Positions 30,174 through 30,243 of a stretch of 64,000 nucleotides of DNA are shown in pieces. The first letter of the stretch is position 1, and each line of letters begins with the position of its first letter. Below the pieces are notes generated by a model. It saw nothing but the letters and a program-made list of their open reading frames with translations. It ran no database searches and was not told the origin of the DNA. A program made the position numbers and the translations under genes. Source of the DNA: Escherichia phage PhiR41_1. The DNA lies in the sequence record PV340561; one strand, 5' to 3'.

Positions 30174-30243
30174 CTAAAACAATTTGTTTTCTGCCTTTTG
30201 TTGTTAGAGATAATAAGCCACATAAGAAAACAACTTGTTTTGG
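30174..30243. promoter_or_regulatory. two tandem motif A palindromes
   Basis: CTAAAACAATTTGTTTTCTGCC and AGAAAACAACTTGTTTTGG immediately right of the host-type block, upstream of the 30254 gene. Confidence 0.5.

Follow-up and report, generated by a model that had tools for sequence, protein, structure and literature searches.

Analysis of a 64,000-nucleotide stretch of Escherichia phage PhiR41_1 (sequence record PV340561; below, the window) revealed a short palindrome, AAACAA-N-TTGTTT, which was designated motif A and which recurs in front of genes. As judged from sequence analysis, motif A is a genuine regulatory DNA site that is conserved and precisely positioned. It probably serves as an operator to which a dimeric regulator of the element itself binds, and this regulator would most likely be a repressor active in the plasmid-prophage state. 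A literature search on the regulation of SSU5-like phage-plasmids found no description of motif A.

A megablast search with region 28000–36000 of the window showed 97% identity over the full length with Escherichia phage CMS-2020a, 95% identity with phage Cyrano (pLF82 of E. coli LF82) and patchy similarity to Klebsiella phage-plasmids and Salmonella phage SSU5. The window therefore represents 64 kb of an SSU5-type phage-plasmid, and its gene annotation was transferred from Cyrano. It starts with a SbcC/nrd/replication-accessory region; next come a group of small genes and then the genes for a MinD-like protein and MetRS (the last two are referred to as the host-type block), and the window ends with a ParB-like/terminase/structural module. 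Copies of motif A at 26251 and 30174 flank the MinD-like and MetRS genes, and the motif is spread across the whole genomes of related phage-plasmids. Both observations agree with the claim of a preliminary description of this DNA that the two flanks of the host-type block belong to one element.

Occurrence of Motif A in the Window

The window contains 13 strong copies of motif A as well as decayed ones. The 19-mer AGAAAACAANTTGTTTTCT was found 10 times with no more than three mismatches (0.06 expected), the 13-bp core AAACAANTTGTTT was found 22 times with no more than two mismatches (6.6 expected), including six perfect cores, and the half-site AGAAAACAA occurred 14 times as an exact match (1.4 expected). 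Half-sites joined without the central base did not occur in the window at all. When all 6 + 6 palindromes with spacers of 0–4 were counted in the window, AAACAA-N1-TTGTTT ranked first with 14 copies, and the runner-up of a different family had 7 copies. A matrix built from the motif A sites matched 14 positions at 12 bits or more, compared with 0.5 in shuffled sequences; because the matrix was trained on these sites, this count serves only to list them. Chance or AT-richness as the source of motif A was ruled out by the shuffled sequences, the unbiased palindrome count and the G+C content of the window, which is ~46%; the genome had been called AT-rich in the preliminary description, and this wording does not hold for the window.

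All 13 strong copies are located outside open reading frames (ORFs) of at least 60 aa, i.e., in 12.2% of the window (0.122^13 ~1e-12), and a start codon follows 18–114 nt downstream of the dyad centre. A motif A copy or half-site was found at every coordinate listed earlier. The symmetry described for the site is confined to a core of 13–15 bp; the outer AG/CT is kept on the promoter-proximal side only, and no copy is a perfect 19-bp palindrome. Similarly, the figure of at least 12 genes should be read as about 11–12 promoters preceded by motif A.

Position of Motif A in Promoters

Alignment of the motif A sites with their flanks showed two position classes. In the downstream class (class 1), which has an extended left half (AAGAAAACAA), the distance from the end of a GATAAT/TATTAT-type hexamer to AAACAA is 13–14 nt, and a Shine–Dalgarno sequence and ATG are found within 0–25 nt after the motif. 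Copies of the upstream class (class 2) have an extended right half (TTGTTTTCT, then GCC), with a -10-like hexamer starting exactly 19 nt past TTGTTT; several of them are located directly 3' of a hairpin or terminator. The 19-nt spacing was observed in all four upstream-class sites of the window. Among 67 sites from four genomes, -10-like hexamers were found 19 nt downstream of TTGTTT in 13 cases (~1.1 expected) and 13–14 nt upstream of AAACAA in 24 cases (~2.2 expected), although the 67 sites include orthologous ones and are not independent. Motif A thus takes up fixed positions relative to the core promoter elements.

Transcription would start ~7 nt past the GATAAT-type hexamers, which would place the dyad centres at approximately -38 and +14. 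The centre is at ~+14 in about two thirds of the copies, and about one third are upstream of the -10 hexamer. The promoters form a related family that can be written as TTT(T/G)NN-GCC, 16 nt, GATAAT, 9 nt, AAGAAAACAA. Both classes are present in the interval 30174–30243, where they surround one GATAAT (30209–30214) with their centres 51 bp apart. The same dual 51-bp arrangement was found twice in SSU5 and once each in the Klebsiella element pJN2-26 and the divergent Klebsiella ozaenae element CP027615. Since 51 bp corresponds to five helical turns, both dyads should lie on the same face of the helix, bracketing the core promoter.

The features of the window are listed below; motif A copies are given without strand.

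5678–5696, motif A copy upstream of an nrdB-like gene (ATG near 5724); orthologous site kept in Cyrano, SSU5 and pJN2-26
15896–15914, motif A copy of class 1 upstream of a TerB/TciA-like gene (15936); conserved island in Klebsiella
16625–16643, motif A copy of class 1 upstream of a 189-aa gene (16659)
18257–18275, decayed motif A copy AAACAAATCATTT upstream of a DUF4942 gene; decayed in the E. coli lineage, orthologous site intact in SSU5 and pJN2-26 (Klebsiella)
21168–21186, motif A copy of class 2 upstream of an Eae-like gene (21258); abuts the hairpin AAGGCCA..TGGCCTT, with GAAAAT (21203–21208) 19 nt downstream
26251–26269, motif A copy of class 2 upstream of an S24-peptidase gene (26374); abuts the hairpin AAGGCCAC..GTGGCCTT, with TATTAT (26286–26291) 19 nt downstream
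30115–30139, plus strand, terminator-like hairpin and T-run where the MetRS gene ends, preceding the focal promoter (sequence reading)
30174–30192, motif A copy of class 2 at the focal promoter, CTAAAACAATTTGTTTTCT; dyad centre at about -38, right half overlapping the weak -35-like TTTTCT, exactly 19 nt from TTGTTT to GATAAT
30209–30214, plus strand, -10-like GATAAT of the focal promoter, between two motif A copies (sequence reading)
30225–30243, motif A copy of class 1, AGAAAACAACTTGTTTTGG; dyad centre at about +14 and 51 bp from that of the class 2 copy; GGAG directly 3' of it, then ATG at 30254
30697–30705, plus strand, left half-site only, AGAAAACAA, in the same upstream promoter context (..taccaatAAGAAAACAA)
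30903–30921, weaker motif A copy TATAAACAACTTATTTTCA in an A+C-rich stretch; counterparts in Cyrano, SSU5 and pJN2-26
32452–32470, motif A copy of class 1; dyad centre 19 nt before the ATG at 32480
32936–32954, motif A copy of class 1; dyad centre 18 nt before the ATG at 32963; promoter paralogous to that at 32452
33841–33859, motif A copy of class 2 after a terminator, upstream of a gene at 33917; 19 nt to TGTGAAAAT (hexamer 33876–33881)
34606–34624, motif A copy of class 1 upstream of a gene at 34642
37192–37710, minus strand, FljA-like gene (Flag1_repress family in Pfam; tandem Hfq/Sm fold predicted), candidate for an action at the RNA level
45673–45691, motif A copy, first of a pair (25 bp apart) in front of the small terminase gene terS (45754)
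45698–45716, motif A copy, second of the two upstream of terS; the pair is conserved in Cyrano and SSU5, and pJN2-26 has one copy there
45715–45743, plus strand, hairpin AGAGCGC..GCGCTCT, then TGTGTGTTTT, between the second motif A copy and the terS start

The hairpin at 45715–45743 is kept in four genomes, its loop being the sole part that changes. In sequence it looks like a leader terminator, which suggests that the late/packaging operon may also be under antitermination or attenuation.

Another hairpin, AAGGCCAC-loop-GTGGCCTT, with no T-run next to it, adjoins several upstream-class copies on their left side (21150–21170 and 26233–26253) and was also found next to motif A in SSU5 at about 85580 and 87600. 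As the hairpin abuts the dyad, the two can be regarded as one composite unit. One such unit in SSU5 is located between convergent genes and has no promoter downstream.

Conservation in Related Elements

Motif A was found at orthologous promoters in Cyrano (18 sites, including two at terS and those at parA, the DnaB-like helicase gene, the cobT-like gene, CYRAN_58, nrdB, the terB-like gene and others). SSU5 contains ~20 sites and pJN2-26 contains 17–18. In CP027615, the proteins of which are only 35–65% identical to those of Cyrano, 21 sites were found. Alignments of the regions upstream of the helicase, cobT, terB-like and nrdB genes showed that motif A is an island of identity between diverged flanks, and the motif is invariant across five host genera. 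Motif A is thus under purifying selection in the diverged relatives Cyrano, SSU5, pJN2-26 and CP027615. An exact 16-mer scan of the IMG/VR database revealed multi-copy contigs of ~90–112 kb, a size that fits SSU5-like elements; the other hits were single chance matches. The relatives from Acinetobacter and Aeromonas, the TerL proteins of which are 59% and 53% identical, respectively, lack motif A.

This confinement to elements of Enterobacterales could also be expected if motif A were bound by a host factor of this order, for instance an architectural protein similar to IHF or a transcription factor yet to be characterised; the element would thereby couple its promoters to host physiology. The core AAACAANTTGTTT is two mismatches away from the textbook IHF consensus WATCAANNNNTTR. 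However, these mismatches fall at two conserved positions, and IHF sites are asymmetric whereas motif A is symmetric. IHF is also present in all these hosts, so IHF binding would account neither for the symmetry nor for the restriction to one clade. That the motif is invariant across the five host genera argues against a host factor as well, and to our knowledge no E. coli regulator has the motif A consensus. Binding by a host factor is therefore considered very unlikely.

Motif A as a DNA Site

The hairpin that motif A alone would form as RNA is weak (-0.7 to -1.8 kcal/mol), and leaders carrying the motif are no more stable than shuffled sequences. A search of the whole window against Rfam gave no matches at the gathering score. 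In the window, Cyrano, SSU5 and pJN2-26, variants of motif A alter one half-site at a time, and no compensatory changes were found. An RNA structure was rejected as the basis of the motif in view of the marginal hairpin, the unstructured leaders and the lack of an Rfam family. The weak hairpin, the uncompensated halves, the third of the copies located outside the leader and a mirror symmetry that includes C and G favour a double-stranded DNA site that would be read by a two-fold symmetric protein.

Binding of single-stranded RNA was also considered, namely that the downstream-type motif A acts in a very short 5' leader adjacent to the ribosome-binding site. A FljA-like protein would bind it there as an A-rich tract followed by a U-rich one and repress translation of many early mRNAs, in the manner of Salmonella FljA on fliC mRNA. 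The FljA-family protein (37192–37710, complement) is the only annotated regulator in the window and a full-length member of its family (PF03614, E = 1e-68). The alignment used for modelling contained 29 homologues, all from Enterobacterales contigs of about 105–112 kb. The AlphaFold model consists of two helix-plus-five-strand repeats (predicted local distance difference test score, pLDDT, 77), and the top Foldseek matches of this model were all Hfq (probability 1.0, E ~1e-3), which points to a tandem Hfq/Sm-like fold. FljA-type proteins are reported to prevent translation of the fliC mRNA (PMC2652032). The predicted Hfq fold fits this reported action, so the FljA-like protein is more probably an RNA binder and a poor candidate for a DNA dyad; the fold, if correct, would provide a structural rationale for FljA acting on mRNA.

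Several other data are consistent with such an RNA element: the fljA-like gene is expressed in the Cyrano lysogen (log2 ~7–8 vs. a background of ~3), it is present in all genomes with motif A and not in the Acinetobacter and Aeromonas relatives, and the downstream-type copies end 0–25 nt before the Shine–Dalgarno sequence. However, a binder of single-stranded RNA leaves the strict dyad symmetry, with its mirrored C and G, unexplained, and a third of the copies are upstream of the -10 hexamer, outside the leader and at an exact distance from it. The marginal hairpin and the leaders, no more structured than shuffled sequences, do not support it either, and the FljA-like protein falls to 36% identity where motif A is unchanged. 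A direct link through the fliC leader (CAAGTTG), for which Salmonella and Citrobacter sequences were used, was tried and dropped: the Salmonella leader matches 9 of the 12 core bases, scores only -1.6 bits as motif A and was not among the top matrix matches of the 8-kb loci. Taken together, an RNA element of this kind appears improbable.

The Aeromonas relative has a plain hfq gene before the helicase gene instead of the FljA-like gene. The FljA-like gene and leftward genes are located in the part of the window with the lowest G+C content (36000–40000, 37–39%). The FljA-like protein is 85% identical to that of the closest relative, and the neighbouring DNA is 97% identical. The region 36000–40000 looks like a fast-evolving or exchanged regulatory module.

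Proposed Mode of Action and Expression in a Lysogen

The symmetric site and its fixed promoter positions support, as far as sequence analysis shows, the earlier suggestion of an operator for a dimeric regulator or of a dedicated promoter class. According to the mechanism proposed here, the SSU5-like phage-plasmids of Enterobacterales would have a family of related sigma-70-type promoters with a weak -35. A dimeric regulator encoded by the element would bind motif A at one or both of two fixed positions, the first overlapping the -35 (~-38) and the second covering the transcription start and early transcribed region (~+14). Binding would keep ~12 promoters in the window and ~20 per genome shut during plasmid-prophage life. 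The controlled promoters would be those of small early or accessory genes, nrdB, the DnaB-like helicase gene, the cobT-like gene, parA and the terminase operon. Positions that overlap the -35 and cover the start are classical repressor positions, and repression rather than activation is inferred.

Expression was assessed using the RNA sequencing data for the Cyrano lysogen from the LF82 study (PMC9928086, supplementary file 2), in which the median of all genes was 9.8. Among the genes directly behind motif A sites, expression at or below the median was found for terS (7.1), the cobT-like gene (7.8), CYRAN_58 (5.7), CYRAN_85 (7.0), CYRAN_87 (7.1), CYRAN_93 (6.3), CYRAN_101 (7.5), CYRAN_108 (5.7) and CYRAN_110 (6.7). 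The helicase gene (21) and CYRAN_111 (25) were slightly above background, and the parA operon was the only motif A operon clearly on (50–89). This silence fits repression in the prophage state, and it fits weak promoters that need an activator too.

The S24 peptidase (UmuD/LexA-like) has no DNA-binding domain. Its gene has motif A upstream in the window and none in Cyrano (88509–89311), where it is among the highest expressed genes in the lysogen (148 vs. a background of 9.8); the two elements thus offer a natural comparison.

Candidate Regulator

The first candidate for the protein that binds motif A, put forward tentatively on the basis of its sequence, is a ParG/omega-like partner of ParA. 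This 119-aa protein (CYRAN_29 in Cyrano) is encoded outside the window, directly after a type Ib parA gene. ParA matched the Pfam families AAA_31, MipZ and CbiA; the 119-aa ORF overlaps the parA stop codon, and the gene order is the same in pJN2-26, SSU5 and CP027615. The partner contains a basic disordered N-terminus followed by KSRTMSLEDEYFELL and FTRSDVIRAAI, a pattern resembling ribbon-helix-helix (RHH) proteins. The segments KSRTMS.EDE and FTRSDVIRAAI, which are putatively DNA-reading, are invariant down to 48% overall identity, and this matches the invariance of motif A. The parA promoter has a +14-type copy in Cyrano, SSU5, pJN2-26 and CP027615, to which the ParA partner is assumed to bind. 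The protein is expressed in the Cyrano lysogen, and it is present in every genome with motif A and absent from the Acinetobacter and Aeromonas relatives. There were no Yersinia sequences among its 797 matches, compared with 62 Yersinia matches for TerL; Yersinia pMT1 appears to lack the ParA partner.

It is conceivable, if doubtful, that the ParA partner doubles as a global silencer of phage genes via the ~20 dispersed dyads, located at the -35 or start region of early, replication and packaging promoters, and that the same sites serve as a distributed centromere. In that case, the partition complex itself would keep the lytic genes off in the plasmid-prophage state, and loss or titration of the partition protein, e.g., by a rising copy number, would be a route to derepression. 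The nearest approach to a site array is a group of seven motif A copies within 4.5 kb (30.2–34.6 kb).

Other candidates for binding motif A were rejected. The control region of the putative master repressor CYRAN_45, which is encoded outside the window, does not include motif A and carries a dyad, GGTAAGTGCTTACC (42607–42620 in Cyrano), that resembles motif B, the second dispersed palindrome described below. The absence of CYRAN_45 from SSU5 is uninformative, because SSU5 could be a virulent derivative. The ParB-like proteins (42365–43731) and an 88-aa winged-helix-like protein encoded before terS are conserved in the Acinetobacter and Aeromonas relatives, which lack motif A; since they are kept where motif A is absent, they fit the family-wide motif B better. 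The ParB-like genes are family-wide and silent in the Cyrano lysogen. An autoregulated DNA binder was also sought among the proteins encoded behind motif A promoters, but searches of Pfam, PHROGs and NCBIfam revealed nothing informative.

Evidence against Repression and the Possibility of Positive Control

Several findings, besides the non-independence of the 67 sites, weigh against repression at motif A and against the ParA partner as the binder. The phylogenetic profile of the ParA partner is shared by ~15 proteins, although it is the only one of them that reads as a DNA-binding dimer. The ParA partner had no match in Pfam and none in the Foldseek or PDB profile searches, and its AlphaFold (AF2) monomer model was poor (pLDDT 63). 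The sole family match was the sub-threshold NCBIfam model aCcr1 (RHH; E = 2e-4, 21 bits vs. a cut-off of 60). The parA promoter has a single dyad and not the repeat array typical of type Ib centromeres, and the parA operon is expressed despite its motif A site. In addition, a scan for consensus sigma-70 promoters found a canonical -35/-10 pair at no motif A site; none of these promoters was reported because their -35 hexamers are poor. Lacking a canonical -35, the promoters may be intrinsically weak and silent without a repressor, which fits positive control equally.

Under positive control, motif A would define a dedicated promoter class as the site of an early lytic activator or of a factor modifying RNA polymerase. 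Such a factor would offset the poor -35, the copies at ~-38 would act like class II activator sites, and the lysogen would lack the activator. The lack of a canonical -35 at every motif A promoter agrees with this, as does the number of promoter-like matches, which is lower than in shuffled sequences (19 vs. 30.6), and the spacing between the upstream copies, which overlap the -35 position, and the -10 hexamer is constant. Dedicated promoter classes do exist in this phage-plasmid group: in related Acinetobacter elements, a different palindrome is joined to TATAAT in 35–42 copies, and these elements have a sigma-70-family gene of their own. The late promoters of P1 also contain an inverted repeat, to which the activator Lpa binds (PMC10695390).

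However, two thirds of the motif A copies are at ~+14, downstream of the -10 hexamer, and the dual sites bracket the core promoter. An activator normally cannot work from ~+14, whereas a repressor can. A phage sigma factor was rejected as well: a tblastn search with the sigma-70-family protein of the Acinetobacter baumannii plasmid NZ_CP016299 (30780–31445, complement) gave no homologue in the window, Cyrano, SSU5 or pJN2-26, so that this factor, encoded in the Acinetobacter relative, has no counterpart in the enterobacterial elements. The parA promoter also carries motif A and yet must be active in the prophage state. Positive control therefore seems rather unlikely, and repression is the preferred reading of motif A.

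Comparison with Known Regulons

By analogy, motif A resembles the dispersed-operator regulons of large plasmids and phage-plasmids, namely those of omega, KorB and C1/Lpa. Omega (ω) of the inc18 plasmid pSM19035 and ParG of TP228 are RHH partners of type Ib ParA proteins that serve both as centromere binders and as transcriptional regulators. As in those systems, a small protein is encoded here right after a Walker-type ParA, and its presumed site is in the par promoter. The short A/T-rich, inverted half-sites of 6–7 bp are like the omega diheptad, and one protein would likewise control several operons. In contrast to omega and ParG, ~20 sites are dispersed over ~100 kb at phage promoters, the sites are single dyads rather than contiguous heptads, and both the RHH fold and the binding of the ParA partner are putative here.

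The KorB operators (OB) of the IncP plasmid RK2 are 13-bp palindromes (6 + 1 + 6) present in about a dozen copies, some of which overlap the -35 (class I). KorB controls a global regulon linked to partition and is a ParB-family helix-turn-helix protein that also acts at a distance. Motif A is likewise a 6 + 1 + 6 palindrome dispersed over the replicon and located partly at the -35. However, its sequence is unrelated to OB, and the ParB-like genes of the element, being family-wide and silent in the lysogen, do not fit the clade-specific motif A.

The C1 operators of P1 are asymmetric 17-mers. P1 is a phage-plasmid in which many monocistronic units are controlled via one short site repeated genome-wide (PMC10695390), and the elements studied here share with it, i.e., with its C1 operators and Lpa late promoters, a short regulatory site repeated at many promoters. 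The Lpa sites are 9-bp inverted repeats that replace the -35 at late promoters, whereas motif A is at ~-38 or ~+14 of mostly non-late genes. The arrangement of an Lpa-type late promoter, with the repeat near -22 and next to the -10, was not found for motif A, and only the terS promoter is a late one; the P1-like geometry fits motif B better. In N15, Sop centromere sites in phage promoter regions reportedly couple partition proteins to phage gene expression (work of Ravin, Lane and colleagues). N15 differs in having four sites bound by the type Ia protein SopB, compared with ~20 sites and a candidate small protein of a type Ib system here.

Phage-plasmids of the SSU5-like group are common in clinical E. 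coli, Salmonella (pHCM2), Klebsiella and Enterobacter, and ~1,000 plasmid records are matched by the large terminase gene alone. They also carry resistance genes (PMC9600943). Their regulation has been essentially undescribed, and the present analysis defines a regulon of ~20 promoters, in which the operators are precisely located, and names a few candidate binders. This provides a handle on the silencing of early, replication and packaging genes in the plasmid state and an aid to promoter annotation in ~1,000 related plasmids. If the link with the partition protein is true, plasmid segregation would be connected with control of the lytic programme.

Motif B and Other Observations

Motif B is a second dispersed palindrome, (A)TAGGTAAGTA-NN-TACTTACCTA(T), each site being about 14–22 bp long. 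It was found in the window at 7952, 12788, 15002, 19974, 33345, 42347, 49147, 51108, 53738 and 60232, and Cyrano, SSU5 and pJN2-26 contain 14–31 copies per genome, including copies between late structural genes. Motif B often precedes a -10 sequence (e.g., TGTAAGAAT) by 6–8 nt or is directly followed by a start codon. The dyad of the CYRAN_45 control region is related to it, and the palindromes scattered over the genomes of the Acinetobacter and Aeromonas relatives are variants of motif B and not of motif A. In NZ_CP016299, the palindrome fused to the TATAAT box has the sequence ATTATT-AGTAAGCGCTTACT-ATAAT; its 35–42 copies precede both early-type and structural genes, and the arrangement resembles the geometry of P1 late promoters.

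The 88-aa protein (45290–45556) is encoded just before the terS control region, the same position that lpa has before pacA in P1. It showed sub-threshold matches to winged-helix regulators (Sta1, Lrs14 and the LexA N-terminal domain) and is conserved in Klebsiella (83%), Aeromonas (37%) and Acinetobacter (33%). This protein is a candidate late activator and possibly binds motif B.

The region 30600–32400, which contains the motif A half-site at 30697 and the weak copy at 30903, is A+C-rich. Its GC skew is negative, few of its ORFs are convincing, and runs of 'aaaacaac/aaccaa' recur in it. In Cyrano, the gene annotated at the equivalent position, CYRAN_102 ('coiled-coil'), is expressed in the lysogen at ~6 times the background.

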